Part shown: positions 909 to 35,615 of the stretch, piece after piece | Position numbering within the stretch: position 1 is the stretch's first letter | How the letters are laid out: each line of letters starts with the position of its first letter | NCBI GenBank assembly: GCA_040397175.1 | Contig: JBBAWM010000004.1 | Location: 45,673 to 109,672, forward strand | DNA from: Candidatus Limnocylindrus sp. | GTDB lineage: Bacteria > Chloroflexota > Limnocylindria > Limnocylindrales > Limnocylindraceae | Length of the DNA stretch: 64,000 nucleotides | Direction: 5' to 3' | The notes under the pieces: generated by a model | Databases searched by the model: none | What the model was told of the DNA's origin: nothing | What the model saw: the letters and a program-made list of their open reading frames with translations, nothing else | Translations under genes and position numbers: made by a program

Positions 909-2003
909 ATGTTGAAGTTCATTGTTCGCCGCGTCGTAGTCAGCCTCGGCATCCTCCTTGGTGCAACCGTCCTCATCTATGCCCTACTCCTCGCAGCCCC
1001 TGGTGGCCCAGCCCAGAAATATGCGGGGAACCCCAAGTACACACCAGAGCAGGCCGCCGCCTACGTGAAGGCGCTCGGTCTCGATAAGCCGATTCCGGTG
1101 CAGTACTGCCGTTGGCTCGGGGCCTGCCGCCGTGATCGCGACGGAATCGATGCGCTACTTGGGCCAACTGGGCTTCCGGCAATCTTGCCCACCGGGCTGA
1201 GCGGCGTCGACACTGGGATCGCGCACGGTGATTTTGGGTATTCCTATGAGAGCGGCTCGCCCGTGATCGAGCGGCTCGGTCACGCGTTGCTACCAACTTT
1301 TATCCTTGCGCTCATCGCCTCGGTCATCTGGCTCTCGCTCGCCGTTCTCCTGGGCGTCGCCACGGCACTCCGGAACGGAACAAAGTTTGACCATATCGTG
1401 AGCATCGTCACCTACGTCATGAATTCGTTCCCCACCTTCATCTTGGGCTTCTGGCTGATCTGGATCTTTGCCGTCACGCTGCACCTCACTCCGGTGAGCG
1501 GCATGTCGGACGCGCGCCTCTCCCCCGCGTTCGGCAGTGACGCGTACTGGACCTACGTCTCCGCGAATCCTGGAACCGCGCTCCTGGATCTTGGGCGACA
1601 TCTCATTCTGCCAGTCGTTACCCTGGTAACCATCAGCATCGCCGGCGACTCGCGCTACGTGCGCCAGAGCGTCATCGAGTCGATGGGCATGGAGCATGTC
1701 CGTACGGCACGCTCCAAGGGGCTGAGCGCGCGGCGCATCAACATTCGGCACATCCTTCGTACCGGTCTCATTCCGTTTGCGACCAATATCGGTCTCGCAT
1801 TCCCGTTCTTGGTCTCAGGCGCGCTCGTCACCGAGACGATCTTTAGCTGGCCAGGTGTCGGGCGACTCACCGTTACCGCTATCGGCACCCTCGACTACCC
1901 CGTGTTGATGGCCGTGCTGACGGTTGGTGCCGTTGCCGTCTCTGTCGGCAACCTCATCTCTGACCTGCTCTACGCGATCCTTGATCCGCGGGTGCGCCTG
2001 TGA
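909..2003 (+). CDS. oppB: Peptide ABC transporter permease (OppB/DppB)
   Basis: Starts MLKFIVRR after a purine-rich SD. Contains GDFGYS, the EAA-like loop TARSKGLS, ETIFSWPGVG and the LDPRVR end. A -10-like TACGAT lies at 868-873. Confidence 0.9.
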   Translation: MLKFIVRRVVVSLGILLGATVLIYALLLAAPGGPAQKYAGNPKYTPEQAAAYVKALGLDKPIPVQYCRWLGACRRDRDGIDALLGPTGLPAILPTGLSGVDTGIAHGDFGYSYESGSPVIERLGHALLPTFILALIASVIWLSLAVLLGVATALRNGTKFDHIVSIVTYVMNSFPTFILGFWLIWIFAVTLHLTPVSGMSDARLSPAFGSDAYWTYVSANPGTALLDLGRHLILPVVTLVTISIAGDSRYVRQSVIESMGMEHVRTARSKGLSARRINIRHILRTGLIPFATNIGLAFPFLVSGALVTETIFSWPGVGRLTVTAIGTLDYPVLMAVLTVGAVAVSVGNLISDLLYAILDPRVRL

Positions 2004-2962
2004 GCAGCCTGTTGCGATCACTCCGAACGATTTTCGCGCCGAAGCGCACAGCGCGGCGCGCTCCGCAGCGGGCGATCGATGGCGGAATCTCGGAGAGCCC
2101 GTGGGGCCAGGCCCGGCGTCGCTTCTTCTCGGGGCGCATGGGCCCACTCGGCCTAGCCTTACTGGTGGCCATCTTCCTCTTCGTGATCATTGGTTCCATC
2201 GTCCTGCCGTTCGACTTCTATCACGTTCCGCAGCCAGACGAGATCAATTTCGTCGGTCGCGGCCCAGCGTGGGGTCGGCCCTTTGGTGAGACGGGGCTCC
2301 TCCAGCTTGACGTATTAACCCTCGTCGTCAATGGCGGCAAGACGTCGCTAGCAATTGGATTCTTTACCGCAATCGGCAGCATCACACTGGGTACCCTCAT
2401 CGGCGTGGTAGCGGGAACCCTCGGCGGAAAGGTCGACAGCGCGCTCATGCGCCTCGCCGATATCTTCCTGATGATCCCAACGATCTTTGTGATCCTCGTA
2501 TTGGCACGCATCTTGCAGGGGGCACACGGCGGTGGCATTTGGACGCTGATCTTCGTATTCGTCGTCTTTGGTTGGATGGGGCTCGCGCGACTGGTACGCG
2601 GGCAGGTGCTTGCGATCCGCGAGATGGAATTCGTCGAGGCCGCACGCGCCCTTGGGGTGCGCCCACTCCGTATCGCCGTACGGCACATCCTGCCCAACGC
2701 CATTGGCCCAGTCGTCGTCTCTGCGCCATTCATCGTGGGCGGCGCCATCATTAGTGAAGCCTTCATTAGCTACCTCGGCTTCGGCGTCGATGGGGCGACG
2801 CCAACCTGGGGGAACGTGCTCTCCGAATCGGCAAAGTTCCTCCAGCAGGGGAACTGGTGGTGGATCGGCTTCCCCGGACTCTTCATCGTGCTGACCTCAC
2901 TCTCCATCAACATGATCGGCGACGCGCTACGCAGCGCGCTTGACCCTCGAGGTGCAAAGTGA
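2000..2962 (+). CDS. oppC: Peptide ABC transporter permease (OppC/DppC)
   Basis: EFVEAARALG, RHILPN and GDALRSALDPR motifs; GTGA overlap with oppB. Confidence 0.9.
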   Translation: MSSLLRSLRTIFAPKRTARRAPQRAIDGGISESPWGQARRRFFSGRMGPLGLALLVAIFLFVIIGSIVLPFDFYHVPQPDEINFVGRGPAWGRPFGETGLLQLDVLTLVVNGGKTSLAIGFFTAIGSITLGTLIGVVAGTLGGKVDSALMRLADIFLMIPTIFVILVLARILQGAHGGGIWTLIFVFVVFGWMGLARLVRGQVLAIREMEFVEAARALGVRPLRIAVRHILPNAIGPVVVSAPFIVGGAIISEAFISYLGFGVDGATPTWGNVLSESAKFLQQGNWWWIGFPGLFIVLTSLSINMIGDALRSALDPRGAK

Positions 2963-3987
2963 AGCGCGCCCCACAGGGAGCGGTCATCGAGGTACGAGAC
3001 CTCAACGTCTCCTTTGCGAGCGCCGCTGGCACCGTCAAGGTGGTGGAGGGTGTCTCGTTCCACATCAATAAGGGCGAATGCCTCGCAATCGTTGGTGAAT
3101 CTGGGTCGGGGAAGAGCGTTTCAGCGCTTGCCACGATCGGCCTCCTGGTGAAGGAGCAGGCCACCGTCACGGGTTCGGTGAAATTCCGCGGTGACGAGCT
3201 GCTAGGAAAGCCAGAGTCCTACATGCGCAAGGTTCGAGGCGGCGGGATCTCGATGATCTTCCAGGAGCCGCTCTCGGCACTGAATCCAGTGCTCACCATC
3301 GGCGAGCAGATCGCTGAGGGGATCGTTGCGCATGGCCGCGGCGACTGGAAGGCTGCCCACCTCAAGGCGGTGGAGTATCTGGAGTCTGTCGAGATCGCCC
3401 AGGCTGCACGCCGGGCCAAGCAGTATCCGCACGAGCTCTCGGGTGGGATGCGCCAACGCGCCATGATCGCCATGGCCCTCGCTGGCGACCCAGAGCTGAT
3501 CATTGCGGACGAGCCGACGACCGCCCTCGACGTCACGATCCAGGCGCAGGTGCTGGAGCTCCTGCGCCGCGCGACGCGCGAGCGCGGGACGGCGCTCCTG
3601 TTGATCACCCACGACCTTGGAGTCGTGGCAGAGACCGCTGACCGCGTGGCCGTGATGTACGCGGGTCAGATCATTGAGGAGGGGCCCGCGGCGGCCGTCA
3701 TTCGAGCCCCCGCGAGCCCATATGCGCTTGATCTTGTCGCCTCCATTCCGTCATACGATCGCCGTGGCAAGGGCCTCTCGACAATTGAGGGGATGGTGCC
3801 GTCGCCAGCAAACTTCCCGAGTGGCTGCCGCTTCCATCCTCGTTGCCGATTCGCCGTTGCCGCCTGCAGCGCCGCGGTGCCACCGCTCGCGCCGCGCGGC
3901 GCATCCCGCTCGGTGCGCTGCTTCCGTGTCGACGAAATCGCCAAGGGCGCTCGACCAACAGCGAAGCGTAAGGGGGGCAGCAAGTGA
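2959..3987 (+). CDS. oppD: Peptide ABC transporter ATPase (OppD/DppD)
   Basis: GESGSGKS, LSGGMRQR, IIADEPTTALD and the C-terminal GCRFHPRC motif. Confidence 0.93.
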   Translation: MKRAPQGAVIEVRDLNVSFASAAGTVKVVEGVSFHINKGECLAIVGESGSGKSVSALATIGLLVKEQATVTGSVKFRGDELLGKPESYMRKVRGGGISMIFQEPLSALNPVLTIGEQIAEGIVAHGRGDWKAAHLKAVEYLESVEIAQAARRAKQYPHELSGGMRQRAMIAMALAGDPELIIADEPTTALDVTIQAQVLELLRRATRERGTALLLITHDLGVVAETADRVAVMYAGQIIEEGPAAAVIRAPASPYALDLVASIPSYDRRGKGLSTIEGMVPSPANFPSGCRFHPRCRFAVAACSAAVPPLAPRGASRSVRCFRVDEIAKGARPTAKRKGGSK

Positions 3988-5144
3988 CGAAGCGCGCACG
4001 TTCAACATCGGCACGCCCCCTGGTCGAACTGCGTGGCATTAAGAAGTACTTCCCAATCAGCGGAAACATCCCGCTCATCCAGAAGCGACAGTACGTGAAG
4101 GCGGTCGATGGAGTTGACCTCGCGATCGCCCGAGGTGAGACCCTCAGCGTCGTCGGTGAGTCTGGCTCGGGGAAGACGACCCTTGGGCGTGTCACCCTCG
4201 GCCTCCAGAAGGCCACAGCAGGTGAAGTCTGGTTTGACGGCACCAAGCTGTCAGATCGCAGCACTGAGGAGCGACGTAAGTTGCGCCGACGGATGCAAAT
4301 CGTCTTCCAAGACCCATTCGGCTCGCTCAACCCACGACTTCCCGTCGGCGACCAGATCGAGGAGGGGCTCCTCGCGCACAACATTGGTAGCTTGGCGCAG
4401 CGCCGCCAGCGCATGCGCCAGTCCCTCGAACTCGTCGGCCTACCCTCGGAGTATGCGGTGCGGTATCCGCACGAATTCTCGGGTGGACAGCGGCAACGGG
4501 TCGGCATCGCTCGCGCGCTCGCCTTGGACCCTGAGTTTGTCGTGCTTGACGAGCCGGTCTCTGCACTCGATGTGTCAATCCAGAGCCAAGTGCTCAATCT
4601 CCTTGCTGACCTCCGTGAGAAGAATGGGCTCACCTATATGTTCATTAGCCACAACCTTGATGTCGTTGGCTACTTCGCCGATCGCGTTGCCGTGATGTAC
4701 CTCGGCAAGATCGTTGAGATTGGGCCAGTCGCCCAGGTCTTCACGAAACCGCAACATCCCTATACCGTCGCGTTGATCTCAGCGGTGCCAAAGGTCGCGG
4801 CTCACGACGTCAAAGACCGATTGATCCTCGAGGGCGAGATCCCGTCACCGATCAATCCGCCATCGGGTTGCCGCTTCCGCACGCGCTGCTGGCTCCGTGA
4901 ACAGCTCGGCAACCCAGAGCGCTGTTCCACCGAGGAACCGAAGCTCGTCTCGACCCTTCGAGATACCTCCGTAAGCGTTGCTTGCCACTTCCCACTTGCC
5001 GATGGAGCGGCTGCAACGACACAACGCGGACGGGCTGAAATTGCCCGTGCTGCAAAGGCCACGCGCGTCGCAGCGTCGAAGGCGGCTGATCCGGTCGCAA
5101 AGAAGAAGCGGCGCGCTACGCCAGGGAGTCAGCGCAGCGCCTAG
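3984..5144 (+). CDS. oppF: Peptide ABC transporter ATPase (OppF/DppF)
   Basis: GESGSGKT, FSGGQRQR, LDEPVSALD and PPSGCRFRTRC motifs. Confidence 0.93.
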   Translation: MTKRARSTSARPLVELRGIKKYFPISGNIPLIQKRQYVKAVDGVDLAIARGETLSVVGESGSGKTTLGRVTLGLQKATAGEVWFDGTKLSDRSTEERRKLRRRMQIVFQDPFGSLNPRLPVGDQIEEGLLAHNIGSLAQRRQRMRQSLELVGLPSEYAVRYPHEFSGGQRQRVGIARALALDPEFVVLDEPVSALDVSIQSQVLNLLADLREKNGLTYMFISHNLDVVGYFADRVAVMYLGKIVEIGPVAQVFTKPQHPYTVALISAVPKVAAHDVKDRLILEGEIPSPINPPSGCRFRTRCWLREQLGNPERCSTEEPKLVSTLRDTSVSVACHFPLADGAAATTQRGRAEIARAAKATRVAASKAADPVAKKKRRATPGSQRSA

Positions 5145-7491: not shown

Positions 7492-7567
7492 GGTGGCCAT
7501 CGTTCAATGGTTAGGACCGTGGTTTGTGGAGCCGCAGATGAGGGTTCAATTCCCTCTGGCCACCCCA
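7492..7567 (+). tRNA. tRNA-His (GTG)
   Basis: G-1 plus acceptor stem GTGGCCA/TGGCCAC, C73 discriminator, encoded CCA, anticodon loop TT-GTG-GA and T-arm GAGGG-TTCAATT-CCCTC. A -10-like TAAGAT lies at 7474-7479. Confidence 0.95.
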
Positions 7568-25337: not shown

Positions 25338-25386
25338 CCACAACATGTGCGGTAACACTCCCCTGTAACACCACCATATGTTGTGG
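25338..25386. promoter_or_regulatory. Tandem NrdR-box-like operators
   Basis: CCACCATATGTTGTGG (25371-25386) closely matches acaCwAtATaTwGtg. A degenerate copy CCACAACATGTGCGGT (25338-25353) lies 33 bp upstream. Both precede an RNR gene. Confidence 0.75.
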
Positions 25387-25394
25387 TTGAGGGG

Positions 25395-25423
25395 TTGACG
25401 CCACACCACAGGGGACATAGGAT
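25395..25423 (+). promoter_or_regulatory. Sigma70-type promoter of nrdJ
   Basis: TTGACG-17 nt-TAGGAT. Confidence 0.8.
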
Positions 25424-25523
25424 TCGTCTCCCGCTGCTTCACGGCAGGGGCTCTGCGCGCCCAATCGTTGGTTGGGAACAGAGATGGTGGGCCTCACATT
25501 TCGAGGCAGAAGAGGGAGAGAAC

Positions 25524-28448
25524 ATGGCGGGCTTGGTAGACGCTGCAAGGGCAGCAACAAAGGCAACAATCGAGAAGTCAACGGCGCAGCCGTTGCCACC
25601 GTTGAGCTTTGATGGCAAGGGCGCCAAGGGCCTCGCCTGGGATCGACGTTGGACTACCGCCGGCGTTCACCCATACGACGAAATTCAGTGGGAGACCCGC
25701 ACCGCATCTATTGGCAACGAGAGCGGTAAGAGCGTCTTCGAGCAGAAGGACGTTGAGGTGCCCGCCTCATGGTCACAGCTCGCCACGAACGTCGTGGTGT
25801 CGAAGTACTTCCGTGGACATGTTGGTAGCCCAGAGCGCGAGACGAGCGTTCGCCAGCTGATCGGTCGTGTAGCCGGTCAGATTGATGCGTGGGCTGAGCA
25901 GCAGCACTACTTCAAGTCCGATGAGGACCGCGCCGCCTTCATTGCCGAGCTGACCCACCTGCTCGTCAACCAGAAGATGGCCTTCAACTCACCAGTCTGG
26001 TTCAACGTTGGCGTTGAGAAGCGCCCACAGTGCTCGGCCTGCTTCATCAATGGTGTGCAGGACTCCATGTCTTCGATCATGGATCTCGCGAAGACCGAGG
26101 CGATGCTCTTCAAGTTCGGTTCGGGTGCAGGCTCCAACCTCTCCCCGATCCGCAGCGCCAAGGAGAAGATGAGCGGTGGCGGCACCGCCTCCGGCCCTGT
26201 CTCGTTCATGAAGGGCTTTGACGCCTTCGCGGGTGTCGTGAAGTCCGGTGGCAAGACGCGCCGCGCGGCCAAGATGGTGATCCTTGATGTGCAGCACCCT
26301 GACATCGAGCAGTTCATCGACTCAAAGGTCAGCGAAGAGAAGAAGGCCTGGGCCCTCATCGAGGCTGGCTACGATGCCAGCTTCACCGGTGAAGCCTACG
26401 GCTCGATCTTCTTCCAGAACGGGAACCACTCGGTGCGCGTGAACGACGAGTTCATGCAGGCAGTCGAGAACGATGGCACGTGGCAGACACGCGCCGTTGT
26501 TGGCGGCGAGCCCGTCGAGACGCTTAAGGCACGCGAAGTCTTCCGCAAGATGGCGGAGGCTGCGTGGGTCTGCGGCGACCCTGGCATTCAGTACGACACG
26601 GCGATCAATGACTGGCACACGTCGTCGAACACGGACCGCATCTATGCGTCGAACCCGTGCTCGGAGTACATGTTCCTCAACGACACCGCCTGCAACCTGG
26701 CCTCGCTGAACCTCATGAAGTTCGTGCGACCAGACGGTGAGTTCGACGTGGAGTCCTTCAAGTACGCCTCGCGGCTGACCCTGCTCGCGCAGGAGATCCT
26801 CGTGGACAACTCGTCGTACCCAACGCCGATGATCGATGAGAACAGCCACCGCTTCCGCCCACTCGGGCTCGGTTACGCCAACCTCGGCGCGCTCTTGATG
26901 AGCCGCGGCTTGGCGTACGACTCCGACGAGGGCCGCGCCTACGCGGGCGCGATCACCTCGATCATGACCGGCGAGGCGTATGTGCAGTCAGCTGAGACGG
27001 CGGCGGCACACGGCGGACCGTTCCTTGAGTACAAGAAGAACGAGAAGCCATTCCTTCGCGTAATTGGCAAGCACCGTGACGCCTCGCGACAGATCCCAAC
27101 CGCAACGCTGCCGAAGGACCTGGCGAAGGCGGCAACCGATGCCTGGGATCGAGCACTCGATCTCGGCACGAAGCACGGCTTCCGCAACGCGCAAGTCTCG
27201 GTGTTGGCGCCAACCGGAACGATCGCGTTCATGATGGACTGCGACACGACCGGCATTGAGCCGGACATCGCCCTGATCAAGTACAAGAAGCTCGTCGGCG
27301 AAGGCTTCCTCAAGATCGTCAACCAGACGGTTCCAGAGGCGCTCGTCAAGCTCGGCTACAACGCTGAGCAGGTCGCCGCGATCCTCAAGTACATCGATGA
27401 GCAGGAGACGATCGAGGGTGCTCCAGGCCTTAAGGACGAGCACCTCTCCGTCTTCGACTGCGCATTCAAGGCGAAGAACGGCCAGCGCTCCATCCAGTAC
27501 ATGGGCCACGTGCGCATGATGGCGGCGGCGCAGCCGTTCCTCTCCGGCGCAATCTCCAAGACGGTGAACATGCCAGAGGCTGCCACCGCCGAAGAGATTG
27601 AGAGCGTCTATCTGCAGGGCTGGAAGCTTGGCCTCAAGGCGATCGCGATCTATCGCGACGGCTCGAAGCGCTCGCAGCCGCTCAACACCAGCAAGAAGAA
27701 GGACGAAGCGGCAATCGCCGAAGTCGCCTCTGCGATCTTGCCTGGTGCCGGTGCAGCGCGACGACGCCTGCCAAAGGAGCGCACGGCCATCACCCATCGC
27801 TTCGAGATCTCCGGCCAGGAGGGATACCTCACGGTCGGTCTCTACGAAGATGGCCAGCCGGGTGAGATCTTCTTGAAGATGGCGAAGGAGGGCTCCACGG
27901 TGAGCGGCCTCGTCGACAGCTTCGCGACCTCCGTCAGCGTGGCACTGCAGTACGGCGTGCCACTCCGTGACCTGGTCAACAAGTTCGCCCACGTGCGATT
28001 CGAGCCAAGCGGATTCACCGGCAATGCCGAGATCCCACTGGCCAAGTCGATCGTGGACTACGTCTTCCGTTACCTCGGAAGCCGCTTCCTGCCAGCCGGC
28101 GATCGCGAGATCCTCGGACTGCAGGAGCGCACCGATGGTGGTCCGGTCCTCGGCGCCCTCCCATCCACGGTTCGCGTGGGTGCGGTGGAGTCGTGCGGAC
28201 CGAACTGCACCTGCGGCAAGGGCGGCAGCGCATCGGGGTCGGTCTCGGCTCCCGTAGCGATCACCACCCCGGCGCCAGTCGCTGCTCCAGCCGCACCTGC
28301 GGCAACGGGAAGCGTGTTGGCCGTCGCTGGGCTCGGCTTCCAGAACCATTCCGATGCACCGGCGTGCATGGAGTGCGGCGCGATCATGGTGCGCAATGCA
28401 GCCTGCTACAAGTGCATGACCTGCGGCACCACGAGCGGTTGCAGCTGA
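25524..28448 (+). CDS. nrdJ: Vitamin B12-dependent (class II) ribonucleotide reductase with a fused C-terminal TSCPD/NrdJb-like domain
   Basis: FNSPVWFN, QCSACFI, SNPCSE, ACNLASLN, APTGTI and YRDGSK motifs; C-terminal C..C..C..CG.TSGCS; SD before ATG 25524. Confidence 0.95.
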   Translation: MAGLVDAARAATKATIEKSTAQPLPPLSFDGKGAKGLAWDRRWTTAGVHPYDEIQWETRTASIGNESGKSVFEQKDVEVPASWSQLATNVVVSKYFRGHVGSPERETSVRQLIGRVAGQIDAWAEQQHYFKSDEDRAAFIAELTHLLVNQKMAFNSPVWFNVGVEKRPQCSACFINGVQDSMSSIMDLAKTEAMLFKFGSGAGSNLSPIRSAKEKMSGGGTASGPVSFMKGFDAFAGVVKSGGKTRRAAKMVILDVQHPDIEQFIDSKVSEEKKAWALIEAGYDASFTGEAYGSIFFQNGNHSVRVNDEFMQAVENDGTWQTRAVVGGEPVETLKAREVFRKMAEAAWVCGDPGIQYDTAINDWHTSSNTDRIYASNPCSEYMFLNDTACNLASLNLMKFVRPDGEFDVESFKYASRLTLLAQEILVDNSSYPTPMIDENSHRFRPLGLGYANLGALLMSRGLAYDSDEGRAYAGAITSIMTGEAYVQSAETAAAHGGPFLEYKKNEKPFLRVIGKHRDASRQIPTATLPKDLAKAATDAWDRALDLGTKHGFRNAQVSVLAPTGTIAFMMDCDTTGIEPDIALIKYKKLVGEGFLKIVNQTVPEALVKLGYNAEQVAAILKYIDEQETIEGAPGLKDEHLSVFDCAFKAKNGQRSIQYMGHVRMMAAAQPFLSGAISKTVNMPEAATAEEIESVYLQGWKLGLKAIAIYRDGSKRSQPLNTSKKKDEAAIAEVASAILPGAGAARRRLPKERTAITHRFEISGQEGYLTVGLYEDGQPGEIFLKMAKEGSTVSGLVDSFATSVSVALQYGVPLRDLVNKFAHVRFEPSGFTGNAEIPLAKSIVDYVFRYLGSRFLPAGDREILGLQERTDGGPVLGALPSTVRVGAVESCGPNCTCGKGGSASGSVSAPVAITTPAPVAAPAAPAATGSVLAVAGLGFQNHSDAPACMECGAIMVRNAACYKCMTCGTTSGCS

Positions 28449-28470
28449 TCTAGCGAGGAACCTCGTTCAA

Positions 28471-28503
28471 AACGCCCCGGTCGCCTCTGGCGGCTGGGGC
28501 GTT
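28471..28503. terminator. GC-rich hairpin after nrdJ (probable terminator)
   Basis: AACGCCCCGGTCGCC-TCT-GGCGGCTGGGGCGTT; the U-tract is weak. Confidence 0.6.
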
Positions 28504-28534
28504 CTGCTACAACTGACCAAAGAGGAGGCGACCG

Positions 28535-30073
28535 ATGCGCACAGTTCATGGGAGCCACGCTCGGATCTCGATTGCCGCGCTCCTCGTCGTCGTCCTCGCG
28601 ACTGGTGCCTGCAGCGCGTTGACCACCGCGTCGCCAAGCCCAACCGCCAGCTTTAGTCCAACCGGCACGATCGACTGGCAGAGTTGCCCGGTGAGCGACC
28701 CCGTCACCGGCGGAAACCCCGAACTCCTCTGCGCCACGATCACCGTGCCGCGCGACTACCTCACCCCCGATGGGCCAACGATTGACCTCGCTCTCGCCCT
28801 CCTCCCCGCCGCCGACCAGGCACATAAGGTGGGCCCGCTCCTCTTGAACTTCGGTGGCCCAGGCGCCTCCGGCGTCAACACGCTCGCTGGATCAGGTCGC
28901 GGCATTGTCCCCGCCGAGATCGGTAATCGCTTTGACCTCGTGACCTGGGATCCGCGCGGCGCTGGTAGAAGCGTGCCGGTTGACTGCCTGAGCGACGCCG
29001 AGATGGATACGTGGGCGGCGGCGCCGGGGATTCCCAATCGACCTGCGGCGAGCGATTGGGTGTCGGCACTCAACAATGCGAAGTGGTTCGCCGACAAGTG
29101 CAAGGCGGGCACGGGCGACATGCTGGCCTACATCGGCACCACCGCATCAGCGCGCGATATGGAGAGCATTCGTATCGGCCTCGGCGTCGACACGCTGGAT
29201 TATCTTGGCTTCAGTTACGGCACCGCGCTCGGCGCGGTCTATGCAACCCTCTTCCCCACTTCAACCGGCCACATGATTCTTGACGGCGCCGTCGACATGG
29301 CACCGACCGACGATTCCCAATACGGCGAGCAGGGTGTCTCCCTGCAGGGCGCGCTCAATCGACTCTTTGCCTGGTGCGACGCTGACGCCGCGTGCCCATT
29401 CGGTGGCGGCTCGTCGCGCGCCGCGTTCGACACGCTCATGAACAAGCTCGATGCTCGACCGATTCCGCTCCAGGATGGGCGATCGCTGAATTCGACACTG
29501 GCGTGGACGGGTGTGGTCTTGGCGCTCTATAACCGCGACTACTGGGATTACGCCGTGCAGGGCCTGGCAGCGGCAAAAACGGGCGACGGCAGCCTCTTGG
29601 CGCAATTGGCCGACGCGTACCTGGAGCGCAGTGAAGATGGCACCTACAGCTCCAACCTGATGGAGGCCTTCCCTGCGATTAGCTGCATTGATGCGCCGAC
29701 AACGCCATCGATCTCGCGCTATCAGGCGATCTACGAGCGATTCGTCAGCAAGGCCCCGGACTTTGCGGCGGGCCAGGCGTCGAGCGGACTCCTCTGCGGT
29801 GTGTGGCCGTACAAGAGTGCTGACCCACTCCCTGCACTCGTCAATGGCGCGGGCGCCGCGCCGATCCTGGTCGTTGGCACAACGGGCGACCCAGCAACGC
29901 CGTACGCCTGGGCGCAACGCATGGCTCACCTGTTGGAGAGCGGTCACCTGTTGACCTATGTCGGCGAGGGGCATACCGGCGTGGGCGGCAAGAGCGCCTG
30001 CATTGATGATGCCGCCATCACCTTCTTGGTGAGTGGCACCCTTCCGCCCGAGGGCACGCGTTGCAATGACTGA
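28535..30073 (+). CDS. Lipoprotein alpha/beta hydrolase, tripeptidyl-aminopeptidase (TAP/Hip1)-like
   Basis: Lipobox-like LATGAC, N.GGPG.SG, DPRG.G.S, nucleophile GFSYG, DPATPY and GEGH. Confidence 0.88.
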   Translation: MRTVHGSHARISIAALLVVVLATGACSALTTASPSPTASFSPTGTIDWQSCPVSDPVTGGNPELLCATITVPRDYLTPDGPTIDLALALLPAADQAHKVGPLLLNFGGPGASGVNTLAGSGRGIVPAEIGNRFDLVTWDPRGAGRSVPVDCLSDAEMDTWAAAPGIPNRPAASDWVSALNNAKWFADKCKAGTGDMLAYIGTTASARDMESIRIGLGVDTLDYLGFSYGTALGAVYATLFPTSTGHMILDGAVDMAPTDDSQYGEQGVSLQGALNRLFAWCDADAACPFGGGSSRAAFDTLMNKLDARPIPLQDGRSLNSTLAWTGVVLALYNRDYWDYAVQGLAAAKTGDGSLLAQLADAYLERSEDGTYSSNLMEAFPAISCIDAPTTPSISRYQAIYERFVSKAPDFAAGQASSGLLCGVWPYKSADPLPALVNGAGAAPILVVGTTGDPATPYAWAQRMAHLLESGHLLTYVGEGHTGVGGKSACIDDAAITFLVSGTLPPEGTRCND

Positions 30074-30665
30074 ACGCCTCGTCGTCGGGGTCTACGGTTC
30101 GGCGCGACTCCCTGAGAGTGATCCACGGTGGGTTGCCGCGTTCGGCATCGGCGCCGCCCTCGCCGAGGCTGGGCTCACGGTTGCCACCGGCGGCTATGAA
30201 GGAATCATGGGCGCCGTCTCCCGCGGGGCGAGGTCGGCGGGTGGTGAGGTGCTCGGATACACCGTGACCTCATGGGATGGCCTCCAGGCGAACGAGGCGG
30301 TGACGCAGCGAATCGATTCTACCGACCTCTTCGAACGGCTGCGCCGCTTCTCGGAGGCGGATCTACTGATCGGCCTCGATGGCGGGATCGGCACGCTGGC
30401 CGAGGTTTCGGTTGCATGGAACCTGCTGCAGGTGAGTGATGCCCGACCACTCCTGCTGGTTGGCGATGCCTGGGTAGAGCTGGTAGACCTCGTCCGACGA
30501 CGCCTGGTCGTTGGCCCAGCCGACCTCAACATCGTGCGCGTTCTGCCGAGCGGTACCCCCGCCAGCATGGTCCTGGCAGAGGCCCGCCTCCTTATCGGTG
30601 CACGACTTGGCGTCGGGGCGCCGTGGGAGGCATCCCACATCGCACCCTCCCCCACGGAGCGGTAG
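30066..30665 (+). CDS. LOG-family Rossmann-fold nucleotide-binding protein
   Basis: V.VYGSA, TGGY.G.M.AVSRGA and GGIGTL.E motifs. Confidence 0.85.
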   Translation: MTERLVVGVYGSARLPESDPRWVAAFGIGAALAEAGLTVATGGYEGIMGAVSRGARSAGGEVLGYTVTSWDGLQANEAVTQRIDSTDLFERLRRFSEADLLIGLDGGIGTLAEVSVAWNLLQVSDARPLLLVGDAWVELVDLVRRRLVVGPADLNIVRVLPSGTPASMVLAEARLLIGARLGVGAPWEASHIAPSPTER

Positions 30666-30675
30666 GATCCTTCAG

Positions 30676-30870
30676 ATGTTGAACCAGCCACCCCACCTCC
30701 CGACGAGTGACGAGAGCGCCCCAGCGGCCGTTGCGCCGGCACCGTCGAACGAGTTCGATCCTGGCCTAGTGATGACCTGCTGCGCTAATTGCGGGAAGCA
30801 GATGATTGATCGCAAGTGCAAGATGATCTGCGAGTGCGGCTACTTCCTCTCCTGCTCGGACTACTACTGA
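30676..30870 (+). CDS. Small Cys-rich zinc-finger protein (64 aa)
   Basis: CANCG-x6-CK-x2-C-x-CG-x4-CSD; fills the gap between the LOG gene and thyX. Confidence 0.75.
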   Translation: MLNQPPHLPTSDESAPAAVAPAPSNEFDPGLVMTCCANCGKQMIDRKCKMICECGYFLSCSDYY

Positions 30871-30871
30871 G

Positions 30872-31717
30872 ATGAGCGAGACGAAGAAGACGGGGATCCC
30901 GAAAAACCCTGGTCGACACGAGCTCGGGATGAAGGCAACGATGCTCTTCCCGAACCGTGAGATCGTCGAGCGCTCCTATGTGCCGATCATCTATACGGCG
31001 TGCCGCACCTGCTACTCCGAACTGCCTCCAGAGGAGATCTACCGCCGCGCCGAAGCGGGCGAGATTGATCCAGCAAAGCAGCGCGAACTAGTGAGTCGCG
31101 TCATTGAGTCGGGGCATGGCAGCACGATTGAACACATCGTTTTTACCTTTGCCATCACGGGCGTCACCCGAACGCTCAGTCACCAGCTCGTGCGCCACCG
31201 CGCTGGCGTGGCGTTCGACCAGCAGTCGCAGCGCTACGTGACCTTCAAGAAGGCGGCAACGATGCTCCCGGGATCGGTCGCCGAGGCCGACGAGACGGTG
31301 CGTGCCCGATTCGAGGAGGCAACCCAGGGTGCGCTGGGCCTCTACGGCGACCTCGTGGCGGCGGGGATCCCCGCCGAGGATGCGCGATTCGTCTTCCCGA
31401 ATGCGACGCGCACCAACCTCATCATGACGGTCAACCTGCGCGCGCTCATCCACATGTCGGGCTTGCGTCTCTGCACCATGGCGCAGTGGGAGATTCGTCG
31501 CCTCTTCCAGCTCATCCGCCACGAGGTATTTGCGGTGAGCCCATTCCTGGGCAGTTTCCTGGCACCGAAGTGCGTGCCGCTCGGCTACTGCGATGAGGCG
31601 GGCAATAAAGATGGGCACTGCCCAATTCGACCGCATAAAGATGAGGTCCTTGGGGCATGGGCAAAGCAGGCCGCCGACGCGAAGGCGAAGGGTCGCGCGC
31701 TTCCGATCGCCGAATAA
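30872..31717 (+). CDS. thyX: FAD-dependent thymidylate synthase
   Basis: GH.S..EH, HQLVRHR-x7-SQRY, EDARFV.P and AQWEIR motifs. Confidence 0.93.
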   Translation: MSETKKTGIPKNPGRHELGMKATMLFPNREIVERSYVPIIYTACRTCYSELPPEEIYRRAEAGEIDPAKQRELVSRVIESGHGSTIEHIVFTFAITGVTRTLSHQLVRHRAGVAFDQQSQRYVTFKKAATMLPGSVAEADETVRARFEEATQGALGLYGDLVAAGIPAEDARFVFPNATRTNLIMTVNLRALIHMSGLRLCTMAQWEIRRLFQLIRHEVFAVSPFLGSFLAPKCVPLGYCDEAGNKDGHCPIRPHKDEVLGAWAKQAADAKAKGRALPIAE

Positions 31718-31762
31718 CCCGCACCCCCATCACACATCTCCTAAATGGGAGAGGATGGGGCA

Positions 31763-33253
31763 ATGAAGCGCGCCAGCACCTCGCGGAACCCCACAAAGCC
31801 TTCACCCGTACGTGCGGCGCTCTTCACCGCCATATTCCCTGGACTTGGCCACCTCGCCCGTGGTGATCGTCGCCACGCTGCACTCTTTGTCGCGCCAGTC
31901 CTGACCCTCGTTGGCGCGGCGCTCATCGTGCTACTCCTCGGTGGAACGACACAGGTGTTAATCATCCTCCTGACCCCGGGCGCGCTCCTCCTGCTGGGAG
32001 TGCTCAATCTCCTGATCGCGACATGGAGGCTCGGTGCCCTCCTGCACCTACTCAGTGGCGCTCGCCTGCCCCATCGTGATCGTGTCGTGGTTACCGCCGC
32101 GGCGTTACTGCTCATCGTCACGCCCCACCTCACCGTCGGACGCTCACTTTTCGCCTTCGATGCCCTGCTCAACGAAACGTTTGCGACCTCATCGCCGACC
32201 CCATGGGCGAGCACCAACTCCAGCGCAACCAATACAGATAACCCCGCACCGAATGGGTCACCCGTCGTAAGCCCTGGGGCGTCGATAGGACATGGCAGCG
32301 GCATTGGCACCCTCCCCTCCCTCAATGTGACGACACCATGGACGCGACCGGGAGAGATCCCCTGGGGCGACGACGGCAAGTTTGATCTTCTGCTGCTTGG
32401 CTCCGATGCTGGCATCGATCGTTGGAGCCGCCGCATGGATGTGATGATGCTCGTAGAGGTCGACGTCGCGACCGGACGTGTTGCCATGTTTGGCTTCCCG
32501 CGCAATATGGTGAATGTCCCGCTCCCCCCAGGCGCGGCGCGAAACGCCAGTCCATGTGGATGCTTCCAGAAGCTGCTCAACGAGGTCTACACGGATGCCA
32601 CGTTCTACTACCCAGAGCTCTGGCCGGGTGAGGGAAGCGTGTCAGGGATCGCGGCAGTACGCGCGACAATCTCCGAACTCACGCAGCGTCCGATTGATTC
32701 CGTTCTGGTTGCCGACCTCTGGGGGGTCATCAAGGTAGTTGATGCCATGGGAGGAGTCGAGATGAACGTCACCGAACCGGTGTACGACAAGAACTACCCG
32801 GATCCAATCCTCGGCTCGATTCTGCTGAAAATCGACGCCGGTCAGCAACGGTTCGATGGGAGACTCGCCCTTGCCTACGCTCGGAGTCGACATCAAGACT
32901 CAGACTACGGGCGCATGCAACGGCAGCAGGCGCTCCTGCTCGCGATACGCGATCAACTGGGAGCGGGAGTGATCCTCAATGCCCCTGCCCTTGCGACGGC
33001 TGCAAAGGGGTATGTGTGGACAGATCTACCTCGGGCATCGCTGCCGAACCTGGTCGACCTCTTCTCCCGAGCCGGAAACGCTCCGGTTCGCCTAGTTCGA
33101 TTCGCACCGAACTCATTCCCGGCGTATCAGAGCCCGGCTTCGATCGCCAAGATTCGGCGGATCATAGCTGGTGCATTTCCTGAAATCAGCTTGCCGTCGC
33201 CAAGCACCGTCGCGACACCACCGCCGAGCGCGCCAGAGAACACGAGTCCATAG
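31763..33253 (+). CDS. LCP (LytR-CpsA-Psr) family protein with N-terminal TM segments
   Basis: LLLGSD, R.DVMM, PR, DAMGGV and AL.YARSRH.DSDYGRMQRQQ motifs. Confidence 0.88.
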   Translation: MKRASTSRNPTKPSPVRAALFTAIFPGLGHLARGDRRHAALFVAPVLTLVGAALIVLLLGGTTQVLIILLTPGALLLLGVLNLLIATWRLGALLHLLSGARLPHRDRVVVTAAALLLIVTPHLTVGRSLFAFDALLNETFATSSPTPWASTNSSATNTDNPAPNGSPVVSPGASIGHGSGIGTLPSLNVTTPWTRPGEIPWGDDGKFDLLLLGSDAGIDRWSRRMDVMMLVEVDVATGRVAMFGFPRNMVNVPLPPGAARNASPCGCFQKLLNEVYTDATFYYPELWPGEGSVSGIAAVRATISELTQRPIDSVLVADLWGVIKVVDAMGGVEMNVTEPVYDKNYPDPILGSILLKIDAGQQRFDGRLALAYARSRHQDSDYGRMQRQQALLLAIRDQLGAGVILNAPALATAAKGYVWTDLPRASLPNLVDLFSRAGNAPVRLVRFAPNSFPAYQSPASIAKIRRIIAGAFPEISLPSPSTVATPPPSAPENTSP

Positions 33254-33275
33254 GGGGAAAGAGTTCGCCCGAGAG

Positions 33276-33543
33276 GCCATCCGATGGTGGGGGCGACGCT
33301 TGCACGCCGGTTCCCCTCCGCTGTGAGATCGGATCGAGTCGCTCCAGCCGTAAAGCCGAGCTCCCAGGTGACCCTCCGCTCCGCCGCTGCGAGTTGCCCC
33401 GCGCTTTGGTGGTCATTCACCAGCACCGTCAGTTGCCTGCCGGTTCGATCCCGTCATCGCCACAGTTCGTGCCGCCTGGCCGATTGCTCGGTCGGCGGGT
33501 TCACCGCTGGCCCCTTCGGGCTACGAGAAGCATCGCGGTAGGC
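33276..33543 (-). ncRNA. Candidate stand-alone structured ncRNA of unknown family (~270 nt)
   Basis: Lies between convergent genes with a -10 TATAGT at 33554-33549. It has four GCAA-capped hairpins, a long-range helix and complementary ends. Confidence 0.65.
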
Positions 33544-33595
33544 GCACCACTATAGAAGGCACTTATCAACGAAGTAGCGTCAAGCGCTGCGAGAG

Positions 33596-33636
33596 TTTTC
33601 CACGGATCTGGCCCGCGTGGCGCTGGTTGTGGAAAA
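33596..33636. promoter_or_regulatory. Inverted repeat TTTTCCAC...GTGGAAAA (DnaA-box-like pair or acs 3' hairpin)
   Basis: TGTGGAAAA (33628-33636) reads TTTTCCACA on the minus strand; TTTTCCACG lies at 33596-33604. Confidence 0.45.
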
Positions 33637-33644
33637 GTGCGCGG

Positions 33645-35615
33645 TTACTCGTCGGCGGCGCCCGTATTGGCGCGAATCACCTCAACGATCGACGAATCGG
33701 CGAGTGTGGTGACGTCGCCGAGATTGCGCCCCTCGGCAATGTCGCGCAGCAGGCGCCGCATGATCTTCCCGGAGCGGGTCTTCGGAAGCTCCGGCACGAA
33801 TTCGAGGTGCTTCGGCTTGGCGATCGCGCCGATGCTCTTCCCTACATGGCCGCGTAGCTCCTCAAGGAGGGCTGGCGTTGGGTCAACCCCCTTCTTGAGG
33901 ATCACGAAGCCAACGATCGCCTGGCCGGTGAGCGGGTCGCTCTTCCCCACCACCGCCGCCTCGGCGACAGAGTGATGGTCAACGAGTGCGGACTCAACCT
34001 CAATGGTGCTGATCCGGTGCGCCGAAACGTTCATCACGTCGTCGACCCGGCCAAGGAGCCAGTAGTAGCCTTCGGCATCGCGGCGGGCGCCATCACCCGC
34101 GAAGTACGAGCCGGGGAAGCGGCTCCAGTACGTCTCCTTGAAGCGCTCTGGGTCGCCCCAGATGCCACGCAGCATCGATGGCCACGGCTTGGTGAGAGTC
34201 AGGTAGCCGCCCGAGCCGAGCGGCACGCTCGCCCCGGAATCGTCGACTACGTCGGCCGAGATGCCAGGGAGCGGGAAGGTTGCTGAGCCAGGCTTCGTCG
34301 TGGTGACGCCAGGGAGCGGACTGATCAGGATCGAGCCGGTCTCCGTCTGCCACCAGGTGTCCACGACTGGGGTGCGGCTGCCGCCGATGAGTTCGCGGTA
34401 CCAGAGCCACGCCTCCGGATTGATCGGCTCCCCGACAGAGCCGAGGAGTCGCAACGATGTGAGGTCGTGCCTCTTGGGATGTTCATCGCCCTGTCGCATG
34501 AAGGCGCGAATCGCCGTTGGGGCGCAGTAGAGAATCGTGACCTTCAGCTCTTCAACGATGGACCACCAGCGATCCCAGGCTGGCGTGTCGGGCGTCCCCT
34601 CGTACATCACTTGGGTTGCGCCGTTGCTCAGCGGTCCGTACACGATGTAGCTGTGGCCGGTCACCCAGCCAACATCGGCGGCGCACCAGTAGACATCGTC
34701 CGGCTTGATGTCGAAGACGGCACGATGCGTGAACGTGGTGCCGAGCAGGTAACCCGCGCTTGTGTGCATGATCCCCTTCGGCTTTGCCGTGGTGCCACTC
34801 GTGTAGAGCAGATAGAGCAGCTGCTCGGCAGGCATCGGATCGGCCGGGCACTCGGCAGCCTGACCTGGGACGAACTCGTGCCACCAATGATCGCGGCCGC
34901 CCTGCATTGCGGTCGTACCAGCGGTGCCCGGTTGACGCCGCTGGTAGACCAAGACGCCCGTGATGGAGGGGGTGCCCTTGAGCGCCTCATCGGCGATCGG
35001 CTTTAGTTCGAAGAAGTTCCCCTTGCGATACCCGCCGTCGGCGGTGATCAGCACCTTTGCCGCTGCATCATTGATGCGATCGGCGAGCGCGTTGGCGGGG
35101 AAGCCACTAAAGACCACGCTGTGTGCTGCTCCCAAGCGGGCGCAGGCGAGCATGGCAATTGCCACTTCAGGGACCATCGGCATGTAGATGGCGACGCGGT
35201 CGCCCTTGCTGACGCCAAGCGCCTTCAGTGCATTGGCCGTCTTCTGCACCTCGCGTAACAGGTCGTTGTAGGTCACCGTGCGACGGTCGCCTGGCTCGCC
35301 GATCCAGTGGAAGGCAACCTTATCGCCACGACCGGCGGCAACGTGGCGGTCTACGCAGTTTTCCGACACGTTGAGCTCACCGTCATCGAACCACTTTGCA
35401 AATGGGAGCTCCCACTCCAGCGTTTTCGTGAAGGGCTTCCGCCAGGTGAGGAGCTCGCGTGCCTGCTCGGCCCAGAAGGCAACAGGGTCGACGCTAGCAC
35501 GCTCATAAAGCTCTGTGCGCGCATTTGCCGCCGCAGCGGTGGCCGCGTCGGGTGGGAAGGAGAGCCCTTCAGCTTGGAAAGTCTCAATCCCGTGCTGCTC
35601 TGGCGTGTCACCCAC
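33645..35615 (-). CDS. acs: Acetyl-CoA synthetase (AMP-forming)
   Basis: YTSGTT.KPKG, SVGEPINPEAW, DTWWQTETG and PKTRSGKIMRR motifs. The GTG start overlaps the iclR stop (TAGTG). Confidence 0.95.
   Translation of the reverse strand: MGDTPEQHGIETFQAEGLSFPPDAATAAAANARTELYERASVDPVAFWAEQARELLTWRKPFTKTLEWELPFAKWFDDGELNVSENCVDRHVAAGRGDKVAFHWIGEPGDRRTVTYNDLLREVQKTANALKALGVSKGDRVAIYMPMVPEVAIAMLACARLGAAHSVVFSGFPANALADRINDAAAKVLITADGGYRKGNFFELKPIADEALKGTPSITGVLVYQRRQPGTAGTTAMQGGRDHWWHEFVPGQAAECPADPMPAEQLLYLLYTSGTTAKPKGIMHTSAGYLLGTTFTHRAVFDIKPDDVYWCAADVGWVTGHSYIVYGPLSNGATQVMYEGTPDTPAWDRWWSIVEELKVTILYCAPTAIRAFMRQGDEHPKRHDLTSLRLLGSVGEPINPEAWLWYRELIGGSRTPVVDTWWQTETGSILISPLPGVTTTKPGSATFPLPGISADVVDDSGASVPLGSGGYLTLTKPWPSMLRGIWGDPERFKETYWSRFPGSYFAGDGARRDAEGYYWLLGRVDDVMNVSAHRISTIEVESALVDHHSVAEAAVVGKSDPLTGQAIVGFVILKKGVDPTPALLEELRGHVGKSIGAIAKPKHLEFVPELPKTRSGKIMRRLLRDIAEGRNLGDVTTLADSSIVEVIRANTGAADE

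Follow-up and report, generated by a model that had tools for sequence, protein, structure and literature searches.

CsrB is a protein-titrating RNA whose repeated identical loops are carried by multi-copy genes. Further described systems offer points of comparison with the RNA considered here. The raiA motif (ModT), described from Bacillota and Actinomycetota, is a stand-alone, abundant, multi-helix non-coding RNA of similar size, with conserved unpaired nucleotides and two covarying pseudoknots (PMC10861870). 6S, Ms1 and CoRP are abundant RNAs with paired ends and their own promoter; Ms1 homologues can be without BLAST similarity to one another (PMC9130861) and CoRP is genus-restricted (PMC11077062). 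The bacterial Y RNAs (YrlA/Yrn1) join a constant end-paired stem to a variable interior (PMC4201824). CcnA of Caulobacter crescentus is a non-coding RNA under a replication/cell-cycle regulator: it lies at the origin, is CtrA-dependent and pairs with mRNAs (PMC8959179).

The stretch of DNA analysed (64,000 nt, hereafter the window) is C4:45673-109672 of a 1.38-Mb genome that is 91.5% complete. Its minus strand carries a conserved, folded, stand-alone non-coding RNA gene with its own predicted promoter. An earlier note, made from the letters alone, had placed an RNA gene at 33276..33543: the gene is real, and its borders have been corrected to 33521-33267, i.e., 255 nt. The same note was right about the intergenic gap 33254-33644, which is flanked by convergent genes. 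The features of the locus are the following.

31745..33253, plus strand: LCP-family gene (PF03816), convergent neighbour; several relatives lack it and have thyX directly opposite the RNA
30872..31717, plus strand: thyX, a convergent synteny marker conserved across relatives
33645..35615, minus strand: acs (acetate-CoA ligase, TIGR02188), upstream neighbour
33267..33521, minus strand: structured non-coding RNA, 255 nt (conservation, covariation, shuffle test, RNA-library contigs, codon test)

Beyond the LCP-family gene lie thyX and a B12-dependent ribonucleotide reductase; the whole plus-strand run 25383-31717 comprises this reductase, a hydrolase, a SLOG protein, a small cysteine-rich ORF and thyX, and its end faces the RNA. 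In some clades of the genus (e.g., L176:6867-7958), as well as in the sister family, moaA stands between acs and the RNA; it was not found in the window's genome (91.5% complete). Since the flanking genes come and go on both sides while the RNA stays, the RNA gene is independent of them.

Among 36 genomes of the same genus, 33 hold the RNA at E < 1e-40. G016 and G017 gave weak short matches only and G029 none; the contigs of the first two stop after acs, short of the expected position of the RNA, and acs was not found in G029. The identity to the window is 0.79-0.98 within the RNA (33521-33262) vs. 0.50-0.76 in the flanks (30 loci), and in more distant species the match narrows to the RNA alone. 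Roughly half of the columns are invariant, unpaired junctions among them. The RNA is single copy in the window's genome. In one relative a contig end (L556, G013:C35) carries a second, slightly different promoter with the 5' part of the RNA, i.e., either a strain mixture or a duplication.

The variable columns are distributed 41/41/41 over the three codon positions and the lengths (254-261 nt) differ by non-triplet steps, so the stretch is not coding; the possibility of a small protein was rejected on this lack of codon periodicity and on these length changes. An 85-codon ORF lies antisense to the RNA (33284-33541, plus strand). It is stop-free over 82-86 codons in 19 of 23 copies, shows no codon periodicity, and is likely a by-product of GC-rich conservation.

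With the Rfam 15 covariance models at the gathering threshold, the RNA is unmatched, as the earlier note had expected. The sole match in the window is a tRNA-His gene (7493-7567, plus strand). Under relaxed settings, the surroundings of the gap gave two weak unrelated matches (E 0.1 and 3.7), neither on the body of the RNA. Canonical rnpB, ssrA and ffs were found above cut-off elsewhere in the genome (C1:374833, C3:189215 and C2:239366, respectively), so the RNA is none of RNase P RNA, tmRNA or SRP RNA. The fourth housekeeping RNA that the note wanted to see confirmed elsewhere, 6S (RF00013), was not found in the genome; the note's reading that the RNA itself has no 6S or raiA signature agrees with RF00013 and RF03072 being unmatched there (for raiA, 0 matches at E 1). 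Full-text searches of the literature gave no description of this RNA, although supplementary or subscription-journal motif catalogues could hold it; in the main text of PMC13212565 the terms ncRNA, sRNA, non-coding RNA and DnaA do not occur. The lack of an Rfam match, the covariation, the RNA-confined contigs (see below) and the separate rnpB, ssrA and ffs support the proposal of the note that this is an uncatalogued structured non-coding RNA retained in a streamlined genome.

The fold consists of two outer helices, P1 and P2, followed by a three-arm junction (P3; the P4-internal loop-P5 arm; P10).

33508..33521, minus strand: 5' strand of P1, GCCCGAAGGGGCCA, the closing helix that is constant over the whole family, also present in sister-family copies
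33267..33279, minus strand: 3' strand of P1, UGGCCUCUCGGGC, then a short pyrimidine-rich tail; pairs with 33521-33508
33502..33506, minus strand: 5' strand of P2, CGGUG, paired with CAUCG 33286-33282 in 28/28 sequences and in the centroid fold
33472..33498, minus strand: arm 1, hairpin P3 with a conserved GA/CCA internal loop (covariation)
33321..33465, minus strand: arm 2, P4 (CUGUGG/UCACAG), internal loop with GAU/AUC, P5 (GGAUCGA/UCGAUCC) (covariation)
33289..33316, minus strand: arm 3, hairpin P10, GGGG..CGGCGU-loop-GCGUCG.CCCC (covariation)

Within arm 2, P5 closes four hairpins (P6-P9) and a conserved purine strand, GGAGCGGAGGG (33382-33372). The 62 proposed pairs are formed in 97% of cells of an alignment of 23 sequences and 15 of them change on both sides, the sequences representing about five related clades so that cells are not independent and independent events are few. 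None of 500 shuffles reached as high a value, and slid partners pair in 31-47% (23 sequences). One of the 62 pairs (columns 102-119) was a wrong guess, formed in 2/23. A 70-pair structure that includes the outer helices is formed in 99.4% of cells (28 sequences). Homologues and covariation, the evidence that the earlier note had looked to, thus bear out a folded RNA. The folding energy of 33267-33521 gives z -2.52 against shuffles, 6 of 200 being as good; the span of the earlier note with flanks (33270-33550) gives z 0.05, i.e., no better than shuffles.

The ends are paired through a 13-bp P1 plus CGGUG/CAUCG of P2. In P1, pairs 2-5 hardly vary over 90 sister and 23 genus copies, and pair 6 shows an A-U to G-C exchange in 8 of the 90 sister copies (2 of 92 were dropped as mis-delimited; 4 further ones have no called end). 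P2 is invariant in 28/28 and hence shows no covariation; its GGUG/CAUC resembles the stem of a module of type B in the sister family.

All the motifs listed in the earlier note are present in the sequence. Among the relatives, conservation or covariation upholds the following helices: (i) the hairpin CCGCC..CCGA-loop-UCGG..GGCGG; (ii) ACCG.CAG/CUG.CGGU, UGGUG/CACCA, GCGGG/CUCGC and GCUC..GAGC; (iii) the 3' hairpin GGGG..CGGCGU/GCGUCG..CCCC; (iv) the long-range helix, in which two pairs of CUGUGG/UCACAG and one of GGAUCGA/UCGAUCC change on both sides and GAU/AUC holds likewise. P4 reads CUACGG/CCGUAG in the two most distant copies, and one pair of the long-range helix is C-A in 9/23 sequences. 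A helix GCCAGCGGU/ACUGUGGC given by RNAalifold and contained in model R1 was discarded in favour of P4, since the two most distant copies break it.

Other elements did not survive the comparison. The local hairpin GCCC-GAAG-GGGC has an A in one arm in one clade, and its strand pairs instead with the 3' end (23 genus and 90 sister copies). The complementarity of the ends was correctly seen, as P1 and P2 show, except for CGAUG/CAUCG: the partner of CAUCG is CGGUG, and CGAUG overlaps the -10. The putative pseudoknot UGACC/GGUCA has its first pair broken in 13/23 and a core pair in 2/23. The four GCAA tetraloops do exist in the window and are not the conserved feature: GCAA is found in 18, 21, 10 and 17 of 23 sequences, respectively, and is substituted by CUUG, CUCG, GCUA, UCUU and others. 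These loops are exchangeable caps. A different long-range pairing, GGUGA/UCACC, can form in 98% of cells, and the changes that preserve it are all wobble changes; it competes with P2.

These features bear on whether the RNA acts without protein, as a ribozyme or as a self-assembling structure like raiA, ROOL or GOLLD, with an interior elaborated in the genus. The many invariant columns, unpaired junctions included, the possible GGUGA/UCACC contact and the precedent of raiA, a similar-sized abundant orphan (PMC10861870), would agree with it. However, no self-cleaving ribozyme or intron family matched at the locus even at E 10, the tetraloops able to dock are not conserved, GGUGA is more simply used by P2, promoter and closing helix account for both ends without self-cleavage, and sister copies manage without the interior. 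Against the two covarying pseudoknots of raiA, one candidate here is broken and the other shows no both-side changes; moreover RF03072 is unmatched, and the present RNA has DnaA-box-like promoters and swappable interiors. We hold a protein-free role to be quite unlikely. Nothing examined speaks for ribozyme function, and of the two roles suggested by the earlier note, an RNP or protein-binding role would be the better reading.

Part of the stretch is contained in 24 runs (19 studies; lake and river metatranscriptomes for the most part), each with at most a third of the sampled words. Contig depth was examined in 4 of them, all chosen for containing this stretch. In run X6 the summed depth is 2,606-94,697 on the RNA vs. 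0-3.4 in the flanks (tmRNA 2,148-50,304), these depths being sums over relatives that give neither strand nor true level and cannot rank genes. In run X3 one 219-nt contig of depth 802 spans 33311-33515 and ends in adapter (tmRNA 1,900-4,544). In runs X1 and X2 the RNA has a depth of 8-30, below tmRNA (21; 30-304), and the contigs extend into the flanks. RNA-library contigs have adapter junctions at 33515 and 33509, which hint weakly at a 5' end nearby. The transcription sought by the earlier note is thus seen as contigs concentrated on the RNA (X6, X3), with a depth that carries no strand information. These data support, as distinct from measure, a discrete and abundant transcript, in some runs as deep as tmRNA.

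Such abundance, together with paired ends and a length of 255 nt, would fit a lineage-specific RNA that binds RNA polymerase and does the job of 6S, Ms1 or CoRP, i.e., stores or damps polymerase in slow-growing cells. 6S (RF00013) was found neither in the window's genome (0/1) nor in 61 genomes of the order, and Ms1 (RF02566) was not found in the genome; at the locus it is unmatched even at E 10, by a model that misses distant homologues. Ms1 homologues may escape BLAST (PMC9130861), and a genus-restricted RNA has its precedent in CoRP (PMC11077062). However, 6S was also not found in 50 genomes of the class's other families, 21 of which have no detected member of the RNA family; since 6S is not found even where the RNA family is undetected, there is no pattern of 6S replacement. 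The fold is a covarying three-arm junction and not the long hairpin with a central bubble of 6S, and the sister copies are multi-copy genes of 61-236 nt, some as short as 61-75 nt. An identification with Ms1 by synteny was rejected, the neighbours being acs, moaA, the LCP-family gene and thyX, and not the HAD hydrolase, CpaE and Fic of the available Ms1 description (PMC9130861). Polymerase binding is therefore judged unlikely. As an observation in its own right, 6S was undetected in 111 genomes of the class.

The promoter region is described by the following elements.

33628..33636, minus strand: DnaA-box-like site 1, TTTTCCACA; TCCACA core in 31/32 promoters
33596..33603, minus strand: DnaA-box-like site 2, in reverse orientation, GTGGAAAA; GTGG(A/G)NAA in 32/32 promoters
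33563..33570, minus strand: DnaA-box-like site 3, reverse, GTTGATAA (other clades: GTGGATAA), at -48..-41 relative to the conserved first base
33552..33557, minus strand: weak position for the -35, TTCTAT, 17 nt before the -10, assigned from spacing; TTGACC in many sister copies
33529..33534, minus strand: predicted -10 GATGCT, 6 nt before the conserved A 33522 (predicted start); GATGCT in 28/32 promoters

The hexamer GATGCT is present in 28 of 32 promoters, with A2 and T6 in 32/32, whereas the -10 of the earlier note, TATAGT (33554-33549), occurs in only one of them, the window's own. An automated promoter and terminator scan found neither. Site 3 occurs as GTTGATAA in 18 and as GTGGATAA in 14 of the 32 promoters with identical spacing; its consensus GT(G/T)GATAA at -48..-41 is found at the same position, before TTGACC, in sister promoters. 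The box array ends 5 nt before the -35 in 32/32 genus promoters, and in sister promoters too. These sites resemble the DnaA box consensus. The DnaA of the genome carries a GGRDHSTIIHA motif, and it may be that DnaA binds the boxes and sets transcription of the RNA.

Since dnaA lies on another contig, the RNA locus is not the origin. Just downstream of dnaA, three box-like sites and several degenerate ones (C3:183889-183963 of genome G000) likely mark the replication origin. Further intergenic box-like sites of this genome lie at C3:111342, C3:144146, C4:11782-11802 and C5:55072-55102; one of them directly precedes a TTGACA -35 with the geometry seen at the RNA promoter, and the genes beside them are presumably dnaB and an HspR-type regulator. 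The link to DnaA is weakened by these similar boxes at a few other promoters.

Selection might act on the DNA box cluster itself, as on a DnaA-titration site like datA, the RNA being a by-product; this would account for boxes with fixed spacing before every copy examined. It is hardly credible, however, given that identity is 0.79-0.98 in the RNA vs. 0.50-0.76 in the box region and that the RNA shows compensatory changes.

A promoter apparently tied to the replication regulator could also belong to a cell-cycle regulator that pairs with mRNAs through its unpaired conserved strands, e.g., GGAGCGGAGGG and the loop of P7, and CcnA is a precedent (PMC8959179). CcnA, however, is found at the origin and under CtrA, while the present RNA is off the dnaA contig and behind DnaA-type boxes. 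Most of the RNA is locked in helices; its longest conserved free strand is purine-rich, resembles a ribosome-binding site and not the complement of one, and is found only twice in the genome on either strand. Regulators that act by base-pairing usually need less than a tmRNA-like abundance. This role is thus considered rather improbable.

The RNA is not the orphan that the earlier note took it for: it is part of a multi-copy family, class-wide in extent, whose members share a promoter and a closing helix. The sister family (f2) may be CSP1-4, as we infer from PMC13212565. In 15 of 20 sister loci, acs and moaA are followed by an RNA gene facing thyX; of the remaining loci, four lack it there, and in one the RNA sits on a short contig. 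Synteny with acs alone missed the sister copies, which were recovered with the acs-thyX interval. The sister genes have the same boxes, a -35 that is often TTGACC, the same P1 strands and a short interior of 1-3 GAUCACAUCAA hairpins; the loop consensus is G(A/C)GAUC(A/G)C(A/C)UCAA, with 1-5 identical loops per RNA. Other sister modules are GGUG-CUUG-CAUC and three-arm forms with GAGCAAUC hairpins. The closing helix GCCCGAAGGGGCC / ..UUCGGGC is present in 23 genus and 90 sister copies.

A pattern of boxes plus P1 was found in 195 of 206 sister-family genomes, with 1-5 copies each, in 12/22 of the window's family, 0/61 of f3, 2/110 of f4 and 0/1 of f5; the reversed control gave 0 throughout. This pattern misses the GTTGATAA variant, the window included, and the tally takes in the unpublished genomes G402 and G379. 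A pattern of boxes plus loop was found in 29/29 f4 genomes (one unpublished, G253). With the two patterns, 20 genomes of f3 and 1 of f5 gave no member of the family.

At L545, L546, L489 and L522, two or three family genes stand in tandem, and every one of them has a separate box array and promoter. An f4 genome has a copy of sister-family type with a downstream hairpin (L558, G341:C385), which is either a transfer or a binning error. The sister RNA is followed by a second conserved hairpin without Rfam match (L471:5085-5200, plus strand; likewise in most of L466-L485), which may represent either a leader or an extension at the 3' side; the start of the gene that follows reads like a purine nucleoside phosphorylase, a name suggested by its sequence.

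Of the genomes searched, those of freshwater Limnocylindrus alone yielded the 255-nt three-arm form. Model R1 detected the RNA in 16/18 genomes of the genus; in 132 sister-family genomes, with only 13 candidates scored per genome, it gave no true copy, and its single match there (G141) is inside a long reading frame and was discarded. The scan of public genomes gave at least 17 full model matches among 80 listed loci, all titled Chloroflexota, Limnocylindrus or Aquidulcis, and that of metagenomes at least 9 close copies among 80 listed loci. A metagenome look-alike (L379) was set aside, as it stands among eukaryote-like genes and does not match the model. Two viral pattern scans gave chance matches among the loci listed: in one, 0 of 80 listed loci fitted the model; in the other, an excess at length 66 came from a single family of protein-coding phage genes.

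The window's RNA has no loop of the GAUCACAUCAA type, which occurs in many, not all, sister copies. Their interior is faintly echoed by GGCGAUGAC, located at the P4 loop, and by the stem GGUG/CAUC in P2; against a crude shuffle, 5 of 450 comparisons of interiors exceed z 3, and interior homology was detected by neither nhmmer nor the covariance model. A likeness of the interiors is thus only a hint. By its promoter, closing helix and position, the window's RNA is an enlarged single-copy member of an uncatalogued RNA family of Limnocylindria.

Multi-copy genes with repeated identical loops, an invariant closing helix and high abundance point to protein binding rather than catalysis. We therefore propose, with a probability of roughly 0.4, that the RNA titrates or scaffolds a protein partner, in an amount predicted to follow DnaA activity. 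DnaA bound to the upstream boxes would set the transcription of the RNA; P1 would protect the ends and be read by a common protein; soil relatives would tune their binding capacity via several short genes with repeated loops; and the streamlined freshwater genus would keep one gene, whose elaborated three-arm interior may present either the same binding surface or a new one.

The absence of a repeated loop from the window's RNA weakens this reading, as do CsrA, Ro60 and Era not being found. The sister copies, as multi-copy genes with repeated identical hairpin loops, recall CsrB/RsmZ; the loop of the latter is GGA vs. GAUCACAUCAA, and the window's genome gave no CsrA (PF02599) match. The 5' strand GCCCGAAG is reminiscent of the Y RNA motif GNCGAAN0-1G without an exact match (PMC4201824). 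In contrast to Y RNAs, no tRNA-like domain was found in the RNA; Ro60/TROVE (PF05731), whose gene usually lies beside that of a Y RNA, was not found in 5/5 genomes, the window's (91.5% complete) included, and the idea of a Y RNA was rejected. The sister loop resembles the 3' tail of 16S, which suggested a decoy for Era; this was rejected as well, since no full-length Era stands among the matches listed for 40 genomes. These matches, which rank ahead of 41 weaker ones, are GTPase domains only, up to model position 202 at most and in tandem as in Der, and Era may be missing from Limnocylindria.

A wider form of the proposal, which we offer tentatively and consider doubtful, is a new housekeeping-level RNA class in which a constant DnaA-controlled promoter and closing helix with an exchangeable interior would couple an RNA-protein complex to replication initiation across Limnocylindria. 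One ornate 255-nt RNA would have replaced several short genes in the freshwater genus, under strong selection and near the level of tmRNA, and may have gained a function of its own.

To our knowledge, few large structured bacterial RNAs are as abundant as tmRNA, and the known ones run core processes. The lineage is described as genome-reduced with very short intergenic spacers (PMC13212565), and that it keeps the RNA at high identity points to an important role. The RNA family is lineage-restricted, occurs in uncultured hosts and matches no catalogued family; for a common lake bacterium, the RNA itself offers an abundant marker. The family amounts to a natural experiment, in which the same promoter and closing helix are combined with interiors that bring the RNA from 61 to 255 nt, so that constant and variable parts are separable. 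If the boxes bind DnaA, the replication initiator would have a direct output in this RNA.
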